From positions 17,112,001-17,176,000 of the forward strand of contig OX597828.1 of the NCBI GenBank assembly GCA_951406725.2: a stretch of DNA of 64,000 nucleotides. The letters run 5' to 3'. The DNA comes from Octopus vulgaris. Lineage: Eukaryota. Below are positions 21,124-59,825 of the stretch, piece after piece; the stretch's first letter is position 1, and each line of letters opens with the position of its first letter. A program made the translations under genes and the position numbers. The notes beneath the pieces are model-generated. The model saw nothing but the letters and a program-made list of their open reading frames with translations. It was not told the origin of the DNA and did no database searches.

Positions 21124-23425
21124 TAATAAATATTAGGGAATAAATCCAAATTTACAGGGAAAAAATCAGATTTAGGATTAAATCCAATTTTATAGTAAAA
21201 TATTATATAATATTATTAGAGACAAAACCACTATTTTGCAAAACAAACAAGGAAAGACTTAATCAATACATAAAATTTTAATAAAAAGTCAAAAAAACAA
21301 TTGTTTCTTGTCCTAATCGACAATCTTCAGGTGGACTTCCAATCTAAAATATCAATATTTTAAAATATAAAAATAATAATTTAAAAATAATTAAAGTATT
21401 AATGAAAAAATATAAATATATAATCTATATATAACCTATATATAATCCATATATAATCAATATATAAACAATATATAAACTAAAATAAACCTTTCAACAA
21501 TTAAATATAAAATATAAAATATAAAATATAAAACAAAACAAAAAATAAACTATATATACACCCATACACATATAACTAATTATATATAACCATTGTCTAT
21601 TTACGATGTTTGTTGTTTTATTGCATTGTTTCATTCATAATTTTTGAGTGGTGTTCGTTTTACCACGTGAATATTATTTTTAATTCCATTTATTCCATTT
21701 CTCCATTCATAATTTTAAAAGATGTTCGTTTCCAGAGCGGGAATACGTAGCACTATGGAAGCGAACGTCATTGAAATTGTGAATGGAATGGATGGAATTG
21801 GGAATTGTAACCGGGTGGTAGGCTAGCGTTGCTTAGGATTGGGAGTGGAATAATGTAGTAGAATGGCAGACATCGGGAATGGGCGTGGATTGCTGCAAAT
21901 TGTTTGTTGGGACTGCCAAGATAGACTAGAACTCATAAATACATATAATAATTTATCATGGTAGTTTTATTAAAGAATCCATTCATAATTTTTTTAAGTA
22001 GTGTTGGTTTGCCGCGTGAATATAGTTTTTAATTCCATTTATTCTATTTCTCCATTCATAATTTTAAATGACGTTTGCTTCCATGGCGCGTATTCTTTTT
22101 ATATATAAGTTATGTTCCTATGGTAACGTAATTTTGGTTTGATTTTTTTAACGGCTTAGAATTTAATTTCACTTCATAATTTGAAACTGACTTGAAAGTA
22201 TGTATATTATTTCTCCTTATGTCATATTGTTATTTTTGATATTCTGGTTAATTACGATGTATTTTATATATCGTTTATGTGTAATAATGTTGTTTTTCTT
22301 TGGAGTGTTTATGTATGTGAGATTGTGTGTGAGTGTGTGCGTATTTTGGTTGTGTAATTTGTTTATCTGTATGAGTGTGGGTGTGTAAATATTGTTGTAT
22401 ATATCGAGTTTGGTGAGTATGTATATGCGTATATGTGAGGGAGTGTATGTATGTGTTGTGTGTGTGTGTTTTGCGTATGTGTGTTTGTGTGTGAATGTGT
22501 ATATGGGATTGTTATATGGGTTTGGGGATGTATGTGTTAATTTGTCTGTGTGGGGAGGGAGTGGGTTTTTGGTGTATATTGAGGTTTATACGTTAGTATA
22601 GGTATGTGTGAGTGAGGTGGGTATTTGTATAAGTCGTGGGTCTGTGGTTTACGTGTGTGTATTTGTGTGTGAATGTTTAGGTTAGGGGGATTGCTATATA
22701 GGTTTGTTATAGAGTTTAGCAAAGGGAGATTTTATCATTATATGTTTTTGTGAGTTTTGGTTTATCATGGTAGTTTTATTAAGGAATTCGTAGTAATTTG
22801 TCTATTTACGATGTTTGTTGTTTTATTGCATAGTTTCATTCATAATCGTTTTACCAAGTGAATATAATTTTTAATTCCATTTATTCCATTTCTCCATTCA
22901 TAATTTTAAATGATGTCCGTTTCTAGAGCGGGAATGTGGGTTGTATGTGTGTGTGAGGGAGTATGAATAAGTATTGTGTTGAAGTATTTGGTTATTTTAT
23001 TTATTTATCGTTGCCTAGACGGTTTTATGTGTATGTATAGGGATGTATATATAGGTGGGTGTATATATAGTTTATTTTTTGTTTTGTTTTATATTTTATA
23101 TTTTATATTTTATATTTAATTGTTGAAAGGTTTATTTTAGTTTATATATTGTTTATATATTGATTATATATGGATTATATATAGGTTATATATAGATTAT
23201 ATATTTATATTTTTTCATTAATACTTTAATTATTTTAAAATTATTATTTTTATATTTTAAAATATTGATATTTTAGATTGGAAGTCCACCTGAAGATTGT
23301 CGATTAGGACAAGAAACAATTGTAGTGGCGGTTTTTTTGACTTTTTATTAAAATTTTATGTATTGATTAAGTCTTTCCTTGTTTGTTTTGCAAAATAGTG
23401 GTTTTGTCTTTAATAATATTATATA
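21124..23425 (+). mobile_element. 2.3-kb Penelope-like non-autonomous element with about 360-bp inverted terminal repeats carrying a minimal HHR, inserted in (TA)n
   Basis: Arms about 21204-21564 and 23056-23425 are near-identical reverse complements; internal direct repeats at 21592-21745 and 22798-22935; no intact ORF. Confidence 0.75.
23286..23328 (+). ncRNA. Intact minimal type I hammerhead ribozyme
   Basis: CCAC-CUGAAGA-UUGUC-GAUUAG-GACAA-GAA-AC-AAUU-GU-A^GUGG; canonical core, 4-bp stem I, 5-bp stem II, palindromic stem III ACAAUUGU. Confidence 0.88.
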
Positions 23426-42920: not shown

Positions 42921-44689
42921 TGTTATCGCGGTTAGCTCATGATCATGGATTACACATTACTGGCTAAGTTGTCTATGATTTACGATTTTAATTTATTGTA
43001 ACCTTGCTCACTTTAATGCTGAATCGCGCTTGATCATAAGGTTTGCTGGACAGAGGTTAACGTAGAGGTTAAGCAACAACATAATGCCATCAATAGGAAA
43101 CGAACACATGGTAATTACACAGTTCACCAAAGAATCTTACCTACCTGGCCAGTGTTATATACATCAATACTTATTCGTATCAAAAACAAAGTAGTTTTAT
43201 TCGATATTTCTCACTGAAGCTATTGTCGCTATTAATTATGTATGTAAGAAGTAAGTTTTTGTTACAACCTGTTCTTAATGCTTTCATGATAAATTGCCAC
43301 AAATGAAGAATACACTTCTGTTAACATGTTTATTGATTGACTAACTTCGTAAGGACTTAATTCGTTATAATCACAGAAGCGACCTATTGTCATTTCTAAA
43401 CTGAAGTGCTACTTAAAATATGAAAAGCAAATGACTGCAAGGCACTGAAAATTACTTGCAAATATGAAATATATCTTTGCTTTATAAACGTGTCATATAC
43501 AATCATCGACATTAGCAAATATGTCCTATATAATCGTAACCATACAAGAAATTATCAAGTGTTAATCCTCTTAAAAACAAAATGGATATATGTGTAATAT
43601 ATAGATTCTGGCAATGTTTGTTCTGGTGCGTGAGTACAGCACTTATTGATTATGATCTACATGGTTACAACGAGAAAATGTGTCGACATATTATCCTCTC
43701 AAACTCACAAGAAACAGTAATTATTTTAACAAAGAAATAAGTAATTCTCTTTCGCTTCCTCGTTGTGTATTTTATACACTGGGTTAATTAATCAAACGTT
43801 TCTAATCTTATTAACCCTATTTTAAGGATTGTATAATCGTATTTATTAAAGTTAAGTAATTAGAAAACATCAGCTTAGCATCATAAAGTGCGAAGAATAT
43901 ATTCTTCATACACTGTAGGTAATTGGTATCGGAATCTCTTTTGGAAACTAGAACAAAGAATGCATTTAGTTTTCTCGATATTAATTTGTGATCTTTCAAT
44001 AATGTAATTTCTACAATATCTCTATCCTACTCTCTCTCTCTTGCTCCCTTTCTTTTTATTTTTATACCTTTTCCTTCTCAAACACTAATTATGTAATCCT
44101 CTTTCTACCACTCTCCGTCTTTCCCACTCTCTGTCTTTACCTCTCTCTCTCTTTCCCTCTTATATCAACACATGCCATAAATGTGTGTAAATATGCTTCA
44201 ATTCTTTGTTTACTTGTCATGACGTCTTTCGTTTTTATTTTGAATTTATCGCTTTTGGAGCTCTCATAACCTACAAATATAATATGTAGGTTGATAATAC
44301 ATTCCTGCTATTTGATAAATTGGTAAGATTACTGAACCAAATAACTTCTTGCAGTTGCTAACACACATTTAAAATTCTATTTAGAAGTTCGATGTTTCTT
44401 CCCGCTCCGTTCACCATCTCGTTGGCGATGGATTTTAATACCAAGTATATCGTCGTTCCGTATCGCAAAATCTGTGATCTTGTAATTAGGTTGTACATCC
44501 TTATTCAGAAACAGTATGGTGAAACAGTATGCATATTGTATATAAAGTTTTCCGGTATTTGATGACGTAATTTTAAGTAACGTTTTACTATAAAACTGAG
44601 ATCGACTTTAGATTTCTTCACTCAGGCGACGATAGTTTAGATGCAGCTTAAATATACCGAACTGGATGAAGCTGCTAAATGCGATCCTT

Positions 44690-45052
44690 TAAAAATTCGT
44701 TTCCACGAACATTCCAATGGCTGGAGCAGTTTGAATGGGAAACGATGCCATACCTACCATATTCGCCGGATATTGTCATATCTGATTATAATTTATTCAG
44801 TAGTCTTCAGAATCATTTGGAAGAAACAAATATGAATTCTGTAGCACGAGAACTGTACTGGAGGAGTATTTTTCGCCACGGACGAGTGAATTTTGGAAGA
44901 GGGGCCTTGCAAGTCTACCAAATAGATGGAAGAGCATTGTAGAAAATGAAGTTGAGTATATTTTTAGATTTAAAAAACAACTTTGTTTATTATAAATTTG
45001 AACAATAAAAGAAATATTTAAAGAACCGCATCATTTTTGGGATGATTCAATA
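44690..45052 (+). mobile_element. Old mariner 3' fragment with right TIR
   Basis: WETMPYLPYSPDIVISDYNLFSSLQNHL; F W..G..SLPNRWKSIVENEVEY; ends accgcatcatttttgggatgattcaa|ta. Confidence 0.85.
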
Positions 45053-45598
45053 CATGCGTTGTGTTTGGAGATGGATTGTAGTAGTCACGACAGAAACGTA
45101 CTAAATTATAGATAGTTATCAGGGATGATCTGGGGATTAACTCTAACAATAACAAGAGTAAATATATAAATAGACTATATATATTCAAATTGATCGATAA
45201 GAACTAGCAGGCATACCTCGCTAAACTGAACGTTACATGCTGAAAAATCGCACTTGATGAATGGATGTAGAACGAAGAAGAACATCAGGCAGTACGCTTT
45301 TGACAAGAGGTGTTGCTTTTAGATTCAAAGTTCTACGACCGTAATTCTGCTGAAGGCTGATGTCGTTATAGAACAATAAAAGCACTGACGTCATCAACCA
45401 GAGCTATGGGAAAATAATCACTACAACCGATTAATATGCTAATGAACGCTATTAAGGATATGATAATTAACATCATGTGGCACTTATATAATGAAGGGGA
45501 TATACATACATACATACATATATATATATATATGTATATATATATATGTGTGTGTATGTATGTATGTATGTATGTATGTATGTATGTATGTATGTATG

Positions 45599-45806
45599 TA
45601 TATTGTGTGTTGAAGACTTCCAGGTTTTGCTTACAGGAGAATCAGTTAATTATGATCAATTCAACATATTCCTCTGAGATTCACACACACATTGTAGCGG
45701 TCCTCCTCGGGATTTCTAAGCCCCGTAAATGGACTCGGAATACTGGGCTTCCAACCAGGCGTTCGCAACACCCTTAGAGCCAGGGCCTTTTCAGCACCCC
45801 TTCGTG

Positions 45807-45808
<2 letters not shown>
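45599..45808 (-). mobile_element. Mariner-derived MITE, same family as 33807-34024
   Basis: Reverse complement shares gctgaaaag..cctggc, gggcttagaaa and ggaatatgttgaat..atcat.attaactgat.ctcctgtaa. Confidence 0.75.
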
Positions 45809-45889
<81 letters not shown>

Positions 45890-46059
45890 ATAAAGTTTTA
45901 ATTCTCAAACGCGTGATAATGATAATAAAATAGCGAGAACAGGATAAATTGCCCATACATTGCAGAAAAATATGTTACCGGCCAGCCATGAGATTCGAAC
46001 TCACCTACATATGCATTATACATGTATATACGTATATATCTGTATGTATGTATATTTTT

Positions 46060-46632
46060 GAAAAGGCCTGATCAAAAAGTATCCGGACTGTTGACATAGT
46101 AACGGAGCAATAATTACGCAAAGTAAAGCCGCTGGGCACAGATTGAATTTGAACTCTGTTGTGCATGCGCGTTATGTTTTAACGTCCTAGCACGCTTCCG
46201 CTGTTTCCAATAGTGCTTGGAAGGAAGATATGTAGCGTGTGATTGTTGCATTGACTATGACAGAGAGAGTTGTCATACCGATATCTGCTCAGAGGCCCAC
46301 GCAAAGTTGCAGAAAGTGTATGGCGAGGAGTGTAGTAGCCGCAGAGAAGTGTACGAGAGTTTCCGACTTTTCCAAGATGGCCTAAAAGATGTCGATACTG
46401 ACAAATTTTCTGAGAGATCGGCAACCAGCAGAACTGAGAAAACAATGCGGATGTACGTGCAACTGTGAGGGGAAATCGTCGAATCGCAATCAAAGGATGT
46501 GCAGATTAATTACGATTCAATTCAGTCTCTCATCACTGAAGATTTGTGTATGAAACGTGTGTAAGCCAAATTTGTGCCAAAACTGCTTTCAGTTGACCAA
46601 AAGGACACTTGGGGTTCAGTTCTACAAGACCT
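46060..46632 (+). mobile_element. Mariner 5' fragment (left TIR + HTH + WVPHEL-like motif)
   Basis: gcctgatcaaaaagtatccggact TIR; EAHAKLQKVYGEECSSRREVYE..RLFQDG; AKFVPKLLSVDQK. Confidence 0.88.
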
Positions 46633-46751
46633 GTCAGTTTGTCTGATGGCTGTTTCTCTGTCACTCTATTTACCTATCTATCTATCAATATATATATATA
46701 ATTGAATAAGGGTAGAAATTGATGCCAATCAATTAAAACCAGTGACCTAGC

Positions 46752-46777
46752 ATATTAAAAAAATCCGAAGATTAAAA

Positions 46778-46864
<87 letters not shown>

Positions 46865-46880
46865 ATATATGTATATATAT

Positions 46881-46942
<62 letters not shown>

Positions 46943-46980
46943 CATATATACGTATATTTTAATCTTCGGATTTTTTAATA
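46752..46980. repeat. About 27-bp inverted repeat enclosing a TA microsatellite
   Basis: tattaaaaaatccgaagattaaaaat ... atttttaatcttcggattttttaata. Confidence 0.8.
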
Positions 46981-47000
46981 ATGATATATATATATCTATT

Positions 47001-47039
<39 letters not shown>

Positions 47040-47244
47040 TTAAATTTATTAAGTCACTCTAAAGGAGATTACGACACCGTTACTGGAAATTAATAGTTAT
47101 CGCCATATTTATATGGCAGTCTTATAAATATAAGACCAAAGCTGTCGCTGATTAGCTCCAAGAGGCCACCGCCTCAAGCTAGCAATTTGACACACAACCT
47201 GCGTCCATTATAAACCTACGAATAGGGGAGGTCAGCCGCTTCAT

Positions 47245-47320
47245 TCTGCCAGTCAGACAGCTGCAGACATGTTTCAGGGTATTTGCCCTTTATCAATGCA
47301 ACGTAGTCAGACCCAGCAGG
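47245..47320 (-). ncRNA. Full-length type I hammerhead ribozyme, U3-A8 variant (copy 1)
   Basis: CUGCUGGGUC-UGACUAC-GUUGCA-UUGAUAA-AGGG-CAAAUA-CCCU-GAA-AC-AU-GU-C^UGCAGC-UGUCU-GAC-UGGCAG; cut between 47266 and 47265. Confidence 0.85.
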
Positions 47321-47624
47321 TGTCGCTACTGACTGTCCCTGTTCGAAGAATCTAATTACCTAGTTTCAGTGGAATACATCCATTTGTTTTCAATAATAGA
47401 AATATTAAAATTACTAAGTCTCTCTAAAGGAGATTACGACAGCGTTACTGGAAATTAATAGTTATCGCCATACTTATATGGCAGTCATATAAATATAAGA
47501 TTAAATCTGTCGCTGATTAGCTCCAAGAGGCCACCGCCTCAAGCTAGCTATTTGACACACAACCTGCGTCCATTATAAACCTTCGAACAGGGGAGGTCAG
47601 CCGCTTCATCCTGCCAGTCAGACA

Positions 47625-47666
47625 GCTGCAGACATGTTTCAGGGTATTTGCCCTTTATCAATGCAG
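47625..47666 (-). ncRNA. Hammerhead ribozyme copy 2 (core intact, distal stem I lost at the inversion junction)
   Basis: CUGCA-UUGAUAA-AGGG-CAAAUA-CCCU-GAAAC-AU-GUC^UGCAG; 365 nt from copy 1. Confidence 0.8.
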
Positions 47667-47869
47667 GAGCTAATCAGCGACAGCTTTTGTCTTATATTTA
47701 TAAGACTGCCATATAAGTATGGCGATAACTATTAATTTCCAGGAACGCTGTCGTAATCCCCTTTAGAGAGACTTAGTAATTTTAATATTTCTATTATTGA
47801 AAACAAGTGGATGTATTCCACCGAAACTAGGTAAAAAGGTTCTTCGAACAGGGACATTCAGTAGTGACA

Positions 47870-47945
47870 CCTGCTGAGTCTGACTACGCTGCATTGATAA
47901 AGGGAAAATACCATGAAACATGCCTGCAGCTGTCTAACTGGCAGG
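47870..47945 (+). ncRNA. Hammerhead ribozyme copy 3, probably inactivated
   Basis: GCUGCA-UUGAUAA-AGGG-AAAAUA-CCAU-GAAAC-AU-GCC-UGCAGC: stem II mismatch and GUC changed to GCC. Confidence 0.7.
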
Positions 47946-48096
47946 ATGAAGCGGCTGGCCTCCCCTGTTCGAAGGTTTATAATGGACGCAGGTTGTGTGT
48001 CAAATATCTAGCTTGAGGCGGTGGCCTCTTGGAGCTAATCAGCGACAGCTTTAGTCTTATATTTATAAGACTGCCATATAAGTATGGCGGTAACTA

Positions 48097-48136
<40 letters not shown>

Positions 48137-48255
48137 TACGCACATATATACATATATATATGAGTGTGTGTGCGTGTGTGTATAGAGGGAGTGAGAGAGG
48201 ATGAGAGAGACGGATAGATAGATCAGCCGATAGATAAATAGATAGATAGGTGCGT

Positions 48256-48418
48256 ACGGTTTGCCTCTTTCAAGATCTGCCTACCAAATCCACTCACAAG
48301 GCTTCGGTCGGCACGAGGCTATTGTAGAAAACACTTGCCCAAGATGCCACGGATATGGACTGAAGTCGGAATTATGTGGTTGGGAAGCAAGCTTCTTACA
48401 TCACAGTCATGCCTGCCT
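48256..48418 (-). mobile_element. SINE family 1 head (older copy)
   Basis: ctaccaaatccactcacaaggcttcggtcggc...cacttgcccaagatgccacg. Confidence 0.85.
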
Positions 48419-48758
48419 ATAAAATACATCCTATTGCTTTGAAACATCCCGACCACATATTATACTTCGTCGCAATGTGGCTATATGCGCGCAGTGCCAG
48501 GTGGAACGTGAAAAATTAGACATTGTACTTTGAGCGAAGAGGATAACGTCGAACAAACATAACAATGAAGAAAATTTATATTAAACCACACACACAAAAC
48601 ACCCACGGAAAATACACAGACTCTCACTCACTATCTGTCACTCCGCAGCACCATCCTTGACGCTCACATAAAAACACACATATAGACAAATAGATATGAG
48701 GGCGTGTATACGATCGCACGTGTTTTTTGACACAGCCATGAGTACGTTACATGTTACC

Positions 48759-48796
<38 letters not shown>

Positions 48797-49011
48797 CATG
48801 AAAATCCGTTATGAATCTGTTTTATATAAATCAAATAGGATAAGGAAATTTAATTTTAAATGATGTAAAGTCTATACAAAATTTTCAATCGGCTTTTCTC
48901 ATGAAAAGACATGGGGTATTTTGGAAACACGATGAAACGAAAAAAAGTCTTCATTCACTAAGTTTAATCATATTTTTTCCTCCAGCCACAGTAGACAATC
49001 AAGTCTAAGCC

Positions 49012-52690
<3,679 letters not shown>

Positions 52691-59053: not shown

Positions 59054-59303
59054 ATATTTATATATAAAAGAAAGGTTGTGTGTCTGTCTACTCCGATTTA
59101 GATTCCTAACTACTCTCACATTTTGCGATGCAGTTTAACCAAAACCGGGTATCTTATAGTCGTGATTCATATAGAGCCCTTCTGTGTATTAGCGCGCGTC
59201 TACGATGAGTCTATGATTTTACAAATAATTTACCATCATTTTTTTCCATTTTAATGCATATTTTAAAAAATAAACGGAAGTAACACTCAAACTTCACACC
59301 AAT

Positions 59304-59825
59304 ATGCGTGCTCATATGCGACGTAATATCACATCAGCAGCATTTCCTCACACCCTCCTTGCACTTGGCGAACGCAAAATACCAGGGGATGAAAATGGTA
59401 ATATTGCCATCGATTCCATTTGTACCATTGTTATGACGCCTTCTGATCTCAGAGATGCAGTGTTCCCAGATCTACAAGCTAATTATCAGAATATGGATTG
59501 GATTGGCAAAAAGGCTATACTGACCCCGAGGAATAAAACTTTTCACCATAATAATGATGAAATGCTAAAACTCATTCCTGGGGAAGTCTATGTATATCAG
59601 TCTATCGATACAACTCCTGACCCAGAGGACGTCATCAACTATCCAATAGAGGTACTCAATTCCTTTGAGCACCCCGGACTACCACCACACTTTCTCAAAC
59701 TTAAAGTTGGTGCCCCTATAATGCTCATCAGAAATTTGGTTCCCCCAAAACAATGCAATGGCACACGTTTGATTGTTAAGTCCTTATCTCCCACCGTAAG
59801 CTTATATCAATATTTGCCTGAATAA
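59304..59825 (+). pseudogene. Helitron RepHel PIF1-family helicase fragment (open for 173 codons, truncated at both ends)
   Basis: NMR, AILTPRN, YQSID, LNS...GLPPHFLKLKVGAPIMLIRNL...CNGTRLIV motifs. Confidence 0.92.

Follow-up and report, generated by a model that had tools for sequence, protein, structure and literature searches.

The insertion at positions 47031-48101 of the window, by which we mean the whole 64,000-nt stretch of Octopus vulgaris DNA analyzed here, belongs to a dispersed family of 362-365-nt units with thousands of copies in the 2.8-Gb genome, and its sequence characteristics make it very probable that this 365-nt repeat is a non-autonomous, hammerhead-bearing repeat class mobilised by Penelope-like elements (PLEs). 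The fuller reading, according to which it is a non-LTR retrozyme inserted by a Neptune-type PLE RT-endonuclease from a circular RNA template, we place at a probability of about 0.55.

The insertion and its ribozymes

The insertion lies between two (TA)n arrays and is composed of 1.74 units on the minus strand (47031-47395 and 47396-47665) and 1.19 inverted units on the plus strand (47666-47794 and 47795-48101), which agrees with the approximately 1.7 direct and 1.2 inverted units within (TA)n reported in the preliminary description. Unit positions are given as q, which runs along the minus strand from q1 (47395) to q365 (47031). The unit has no open reading frame in any frame, as had also been reported, no tRNA was found in it, it shows no LTR layout, and the GC content of units is 0.40-0.43. 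Compared with a column-by-column majority sequence of close copies the pieces show 1.5-4.2% divergence, so the insertion is not among the youngest. The features of the locus are as follows.

46781..47030, unstranded: (TA)n tract adjoining the long 3' end (array to 47033)
47031..47395, minus strand: full 365-nt unit, q1-365, reaching at 47031 the long ('tailed') 3' end, which abuts (TA)n
47031..47088, minus strand: 58-nt tail, q308-365, separating the two fixed 3' ends of the family
47396..47665, minus strand: second unit, 5'-truncated, q96-365, head-to-tail with the full unit at 95% identity
47666..47794, plus strand: inverted arm, 5'-truncated piece, q237-365
47795..48101, plus strand: inverted arm, q1-307, stopping at the short (tail-less) 3' end and abutting (TA)n
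48102..48161, unstranded: (TA)n tract adjoining the short 3' end (array from 48100)
47260..47302, minus strand: minimal type I hammerhead with 6-bp stem I, UUGAUAA core, 4-bp stem II, palindromic helix III and C17 at 47266
47626..47666, minus strand: second hammerhead, C17 at 47631, stem I of only 5 bp
47888..47930, plus strand: third hammerhead, damaged, with a GCC site and a stem II mismatch
47213..47348, minus strand: predicted long interrupted stem extending stem I, about q48-95 with q135-183, with several compensated pairs

A structure-constrained scan for type I hammerheads on both strands of the whole window gave three matches, two on the minus strand with C17 at 47266 and 47631, exactly 365 nt apart, and an unrelated one at 23324. 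The GUC cut sites and their spacing were therefore already correctly given in the preliminary description, which had called the cores intact and complete; the two sites stand, the canonical form does not. The core is UUGAUAA, with a U3:A8 pair, and not CUGAUGA, helix III is one base pair with a palindromic tetraloop (ACAUGU), and the layout reads 5-6-bp stem I, UUGAUAA, 4-bp stem II, GAAA-CAUG-UC. Stem I at 47631 is reduced to 5 bp because the inversion junction at 47666 cuts it. These non-canonical motifs are minimal type I hammerheads, which are predicted to work only as dimers. The U3:A8 pair and palindromic helix III have been described in PLE ribozymes, for which PMC4209133 reports a need for dimerisation and weak in vitro cleavage. 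Rfam hammerhead models searched against 44000-52000 gave no match, only microsatellite noise. The motif is not a product of chance, since all 39 nt recur exactly at 334 places in the genome and the reversed control at none.

Other elements are seen in the same window. The hammerhead at 23324 (plus strand, C3:G8, CAAUUG palindrome), a motif type which recurs in locus L067, belongs to a second PLE-like insertion with inverted ends at 21135-23420, in which no homology to the 365-nt unit was found. Frame 2 of 46181-46620 presumably holds a broken mariner-type transposase N-terminus, judging by its motifs, and the open frame at 59274-59825 we take to resemble the PIF1-type helicase of Helitrons. 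A short inverted pair about the same (TA)n tract, noticed by eye at 46755-46780 and 46955-46985, perhaps represents the ends of another TA-targeting repeat.

Pairing in the ribozyme appears to be maintained. In 28 distinct ribozyme rows 96.4% of cells are paired, compared with 24-52% in slid controls, and changes on both sides are found at five hammerhead pairs, counts which represent a handful of inherited subfamily events and not independent ones. None of 500 shuffles reached the covariation score, and on one of the five measures, further pair types, the shuffles were not beaten (492 of 500). The compensatory changes include ACAUGU to ACGCGU in helix III and A-U to G-C in stem II, and the long stem around the ribozyme together with the downstream hairpins is also compensated, at 9 of 91 pairs. 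The pattern supports structural selection on the hammerhead, which is kept by compensatory changes.

What a transcript of this particular locus would do depends, in the folding models, on where it starts. The whole minus-strand transcript is predicted to fold as a long hairpin whose arms, 47089-47524 and 47666-48101, are 94% complementary, and read-through RNA from the 48101 side would form a 436-bp hairpin burying the 47266 site. A transcript starting near 47666 is the only one predicted to adopt the double hammerhead; the crossed structure lies there 0.4-2.2 kcal/mol off the best fold, a low cost owed to the upstream copy being without its own long stem, while in complete tandem units it costs 6-11 kcal/mol (five of five pairs). 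Monomer release from this locus in vivo would thus depend on the transcription start, and the earlier statement that a minus-strand transcript would release a 365-nt monomer or circRNA seems overstated here, the motifs being minimal and of dimer type and the 47266 site buried in the read-through hairpin. By the same models the 47200-47700 minus-strand construct proposed with that statement is a good test substrate. The circularised unit is predicted to be highly self-paired, with circular MFE z-scores of -4.1 to -9.3 in five of five sense units (40 shuffles each) and z = -8.0 for the sense strand against -4.7 for the antisense. Of four sequencing runs available as contigs, three of them guessed to be RNA, two runs span all 29 bins, and some contigs cross the cut site or unit junction; tandem DNA gives the same junction, and the contigs show neither strand, ends, level nor circles. 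A B-box-like 9-mer at q173 was rejected as a Pol III promoter, being absent from the sister family described below, paired in a stem and accompanied by no tRNA. An intron donor-like site was spotted by eye near q35-41.

The family and the anatomy of its insertions

The preliminary description had called for a genome-wide count of copies and tandem arrays. A DNA search returned 2,734 candidates, of which 40 were scored. Two mutually exclusive intact-core patterns, the ACAUGU type with 649 genome matches (20 in the control, and roughly 10 unrelated among the first 100 rows) and the ACGCGU type with 1,725 (control 0), together give about 2,370 matches, and a 23-mer from the tail has 2,670 exact matches (control 0). 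Arrays reach 5.5 units among 101 complete insertions, and arrays of five to six units exist. Subfamilies are 83-95% identical to the window unit, and the young ones contain units only 0.1-0.5% apart; in one young insertion (L204) five units are 0.11% apart and the inverted arm shows no difference over 600 compared bases.

A search with the family profile also detected a distant sister family (E about 1e-8). Its unit of 353 nt is collinear with ours round the whole unit (score 191; shuffles 114 +/- 9, maximum 135), and it possesses a canonical C3:G8 core and its own palindrome, with 955 pattern matches (control 0). Many sister copies are 98-100% identical, older subfamilies 73-92%, and the same two-end anatomy is present, with 3' ends about 45 nt apart.

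L256 and L269-L298, e.g. G000:C1:70536803-70537545: sister family loci, 353-nt unit, young

Insertion anatomy was examined in 101 distinct complete insertions, a sample which excludes pieces cut by locus edges or flanked by N and is enriched for intact ribozymes. The 158 outer 3' ends fall largely at two fixed points 58 nt apart, 81 of them at q363-365 and 57 at q299-312. More than half of the insertions (57/101) are inverted, and 45 of these 57 pair a long with a short end (q365 with about q307), as does the window copy. TA-rich sequence flanks 100 of 158 3' ends and only 4 of 44 outer 5' ends. Truncation at the 5' side is random, with inverted 5' arms and with (TA)n at the 3' ends, and any target-site duplication would be masked by the (TA)n flanks. 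Two ribozyme sites on the same strand were found in 25 of the 101 insertions of this enriched sample and in only 1 of 24 insertions picked by their tails. The commonest 5' breakpoint, q174 (16/147), is located at a palindrome that pairs with q49-55, a clustering which suggests cDNA fold-back or an alignment artefact.

This anatomy is in accordance with what is known of PLEs, whose insertions contain partial tandems together with a 5'-truncated copy in inverted orientation, and bear a tail on one side (PMC8557442); in the Anolis PLE two internal RT start sites delimit the tail (PMC11167929). It supports insertion of the unit by a Penelope-type mechanism, as read from the ends of the copies. Mobilisation of a retrozyme by PLEs, as originally proposed, is in this respect borne out by the two fixed 3' ends, inverted arms and TA flanks, and the retrozyme-type tandem unit by a non-coding tandem repeat with a type I hammerhead in consecutive units and covariation.

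Resident Penelope-like elements

At least three young, intact, (TA)n-targeting PLE families were found in the genome (loci L061-L067, L218-L247 and L309-L337). One has a 781-aa ORF with RVT_1 and GIY-YIG domains and a U3:A8 ribozyme. The second has a 775-aa ORF, with 76 of 76 scored copies 100% identical, and a hammerhead core CCGAAGA. The third, family C, has an 811-aa ORF with Pfam RVT_1 and a GIY-YIG match below threshold, a U3:A8 ribozyme, and 99.3-99.7% identity among four compared copies. Canonical PLEs consist of a single ORF; two of the three families carry a separate ORF1 of 479-495 aa upstream of the RT-EN ORF, and the 479-aa ORF1 had no Pfam match. All three families possess two 3' ends, (TA)n flanks and a CX4CxxC linker, the latter being of Neptune/Nematis type according to PMC8557442.

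We looked for relatedness between the unit and these elements. When the unit was aligned locally to the termini of seven PLE-type regions, the scores stayed within those of shuffles. Blastn and nhmmer applied to 159 PLE loci, a small part of the more than 30,000 candidates, detected no terminal homology to the unit and only separate insertions or fusions. The linkage to a PLE RT/GIY-YIG ORF that the preliminary description had looked for did not appear, since in the sampled unit loci no PLE ORF is joined to the unit through a shared junction, and neither do the sampled loci present the unit as only the pLTR of a full Penelope element. At locus L106 the DNA between two ribozymes 3.9 kb apart proved to be an unrelated insertion with no PLE ORF.

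Direct fusions of a unit with family C, with no TA spacer and on the 5' side of the unit, were found at three loci, the last of them by following the lead of the first.

L082: unit-family C fusion, this 365-nt family
L296/L299: unit-family C fusion, sister family
L302: unit-family C fusion, sister family

Family C supplies the opposite 3' end in two of the three. Among 171 overlapping unit loci, the remaining PLE neighbours have TA tracts or other DNA between themselves and the unit. No units were present at 29 further family C loci, mostly young, which weakens the lead given by these chimeras. We tentatively consider template switching by the family C enzyme as their origin, at somewhat under even odds; insertion with deletion into older copies fits too. 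The three fusions point weakly to one Neptune-like PLE lineage as the mobiliser.

Template, rival readings and significance

Under the reading we prefer, a locus carrying two same-strand ribozymes would be transcribed, the ribozymes would pair through the palindromic helix III as a double hammerhead, probably with the assistance of protein, and one unit would be cut out and circularised by a host ligase. The PLE protein would then nick (TA)n and cDNA would begin inside the RNA at q365 or q307, with one start per DNA strand, which would produce the inverted layout of a long and a short end. Synthesis would circle the template and stop at random, leaving 0.1-5.5 units. On a cleaved linear monomer cDNA synthesis would end at q131, yet only 2 of 153 5' breakpoints fall within q126-136 (0 of 36 in the tail-picked subset), and there is no indel at the cut site in any of 96 pieces. 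The cleaved linear monomer is thus likely not the template, which would be a circle or an uncut multimer.

Between these two the choice is less clear. With the same family and PLE enzyme, the template could be an uncut linear multimer transcribed from longer arrays, without any circle, the ribozyme trimming or regulating the RNA or being a protein-binding fold; this is possible, at odds which we set clearly below even. Such a multimer explains the seamless cut site and the missing breakpoints equally well, arrays of 5-6 units are available to encode it, and ribozyme mutations leave in vitro insertion by the Anolis PLE unaffected, ribozyme-dead RNA still being inserted and unprocessed RNA serving as the principal substrate (PMC11167929). 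Even in dimeric form the minimal hammerheads of PLEs show poor cleavage (PMC4209133), and of nine Xenopus retrozyme dimers eight were uncleaved (bioRxiv 10.64898/2026.07.22.740005). However, linear copying would shorten the family unless arrays regrow, and with only 1 of 24 tail-picked insertions carrying two ribozymes the length must be regained somehow. The dimer palindrome was preserved through double changes, the unit remained 353-365 nt and collinear over a deep split, and related repeats accumulate as circles in mussel, coral and axolotl (PMC7229834). It is the low number of double-ribozyme insertions, the young L204 array with its identical arm, the conserved palindrome and the circles of related repeats that favor the circle. 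Distances within a locus are often equal to or larger than the distance to the nearest other locus, and their comparison was rejected as a discriminator, as it does not separate circle from multimer.

Two further readings dispense with a free-standing element. One, which we consider very unlikely, takes the unit to be a mere pLTR, the truncated remnant of an autonomous Penelope-like element. In its favor, a tail, inversions, a minimal U3:A8 hammerhead and (TA)n targets are each characteristic of pLTRs, U3:A8 cores are shared by two of the resident PLE families, and few of the more than 30,000 PLE candidates were sampled. Yet in the sampled insertions q365 runs into q1 or into the flank and never into a shared ORF, the unit builds perfect head-to-tail arrays and has subfamilies of its own, and the ends of the 159 PLE loci are without homology to the unit; descent of the unit from an old pLTR is possible. 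Still less credible is a minisatellite that recombined or was duplicated as DNA and merely carried the hammerhead along: plain local duplications do occur at L156/L157, L165/L166 and L026, whereas spread at the DNA level would not be expected to produce fixed 3' ends with random 5' ends, a long end paired with a short one in 45 of 57 inverted insertions, TA flanks with a polarity, or RNA covariation specific to one strand.

Among known systems the closest are the metazoan non-LTR retrozymes (Cervera and de la Pena 2020), represented by 350-390-bp mussel elements and axolotl Rtz331/353 (PMC7229834). The octopus element shares with them an approximately 360-nt tandem non-coding unit of 41% GC, one type I hammerhead per unit and a highly self-paired predicted circle, and its weak palindromic helix III resembles that of axolotl HHR_Amex1. 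It differs in its minimal U3:A8 core, which in that text is tied to PLEs, and in the two fixed 3' ends, inverted 5' arms and (TA)n targeting, absent from the descriptions there; cleavage and circles have been demonstrated for those retrozymes, whereas for the octopus unit they are predicted from the sequence. A preprint by Li, Clavereau and Pollet (2026, bioRxiv 10.64898/2026.07.22.740005) argues that vertebrate non-LTR retrozymes derive from PLEs and are non-autonomous, and the 365-nt element, by its sequence features, fits the definition of a non-LTR retrozyme given there. The case made in the preprint relies on co-occurrence and on homology to pLTRs in Xenopus, and the four invertebrates it covers are three insects and a coral; in octopus there is an insertion footprint and no parent pLTR was found. 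The claim of an undescribed retrozyme family consequently holds in part: no published description of this family was found in the literature searched (Repbase/Dfam and the supplements of PMC7229834 and of the preprint lie outside that search), while the kind of element, including its PLE origin, is already in print.

With EN+ PLEs, namely Neptune/Nematis with their CX2-5CxxC linker and the Poseidon PAc of Anolis (PMC11167929, PMC8557442 and PMC4209133), the unit shares partial tandems, an inverted 5'-truncated arm, an optional tail, a minimal dimer-type hammerhead and AT-rich targets; the U3-A8 variant was first seen in Schistosoma Cercyon PLEs (PMC4209133). Unlike the EN+ PLEs, for which tails of 30-40 nt are published, the unit has a tail of 58 nt; it also lacks an ORF, closes on itself, and is not an autonomous PLE. 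The non-autonomous Chlamys elements, e.g. MRC1, are likewise non-coding, PLE-mobilised and multicopy in head-to-tail arrangement, but their 3' end resembles that of autonomous partners, while no partner homology was detected for the octopus unit, and PMC8557442 reports that canonical hammerheads are absent from most Chlamys, whereas the octopus family has a hammerhead.

In the papers considered here, the case for mobilisation of animal retrozymes by PLEs through RNA circles rests on co-occurrence, shared ribozymes and pLTR homology, and the octopus family adds a ribozyme repeat that encodes no protein and yet bears the insertion footprint of PLEs. Young subfamilies, 0.1-0.5% apart, coexist in one genome with young intact PLE ORFs whose copies are 99-100% identical, so that the existing in vitro PLE assay could test mobiliser and circle directly. 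A wider hypothesis, which we regard as rather unlikely, is that a superfamily of 353-365-nt ribozyme RNA circles lives as free-standing parasites of one Neptune-like PLE lineage, inserted by rolling-circle target-primed reverse transcription from two internal starts, the chimeras recording switches of the enzyme between parasite RNA and its own mRNA. If true, this would be a directly reconstitutable case of which enzyme moves animal retrozymes, and from which template.
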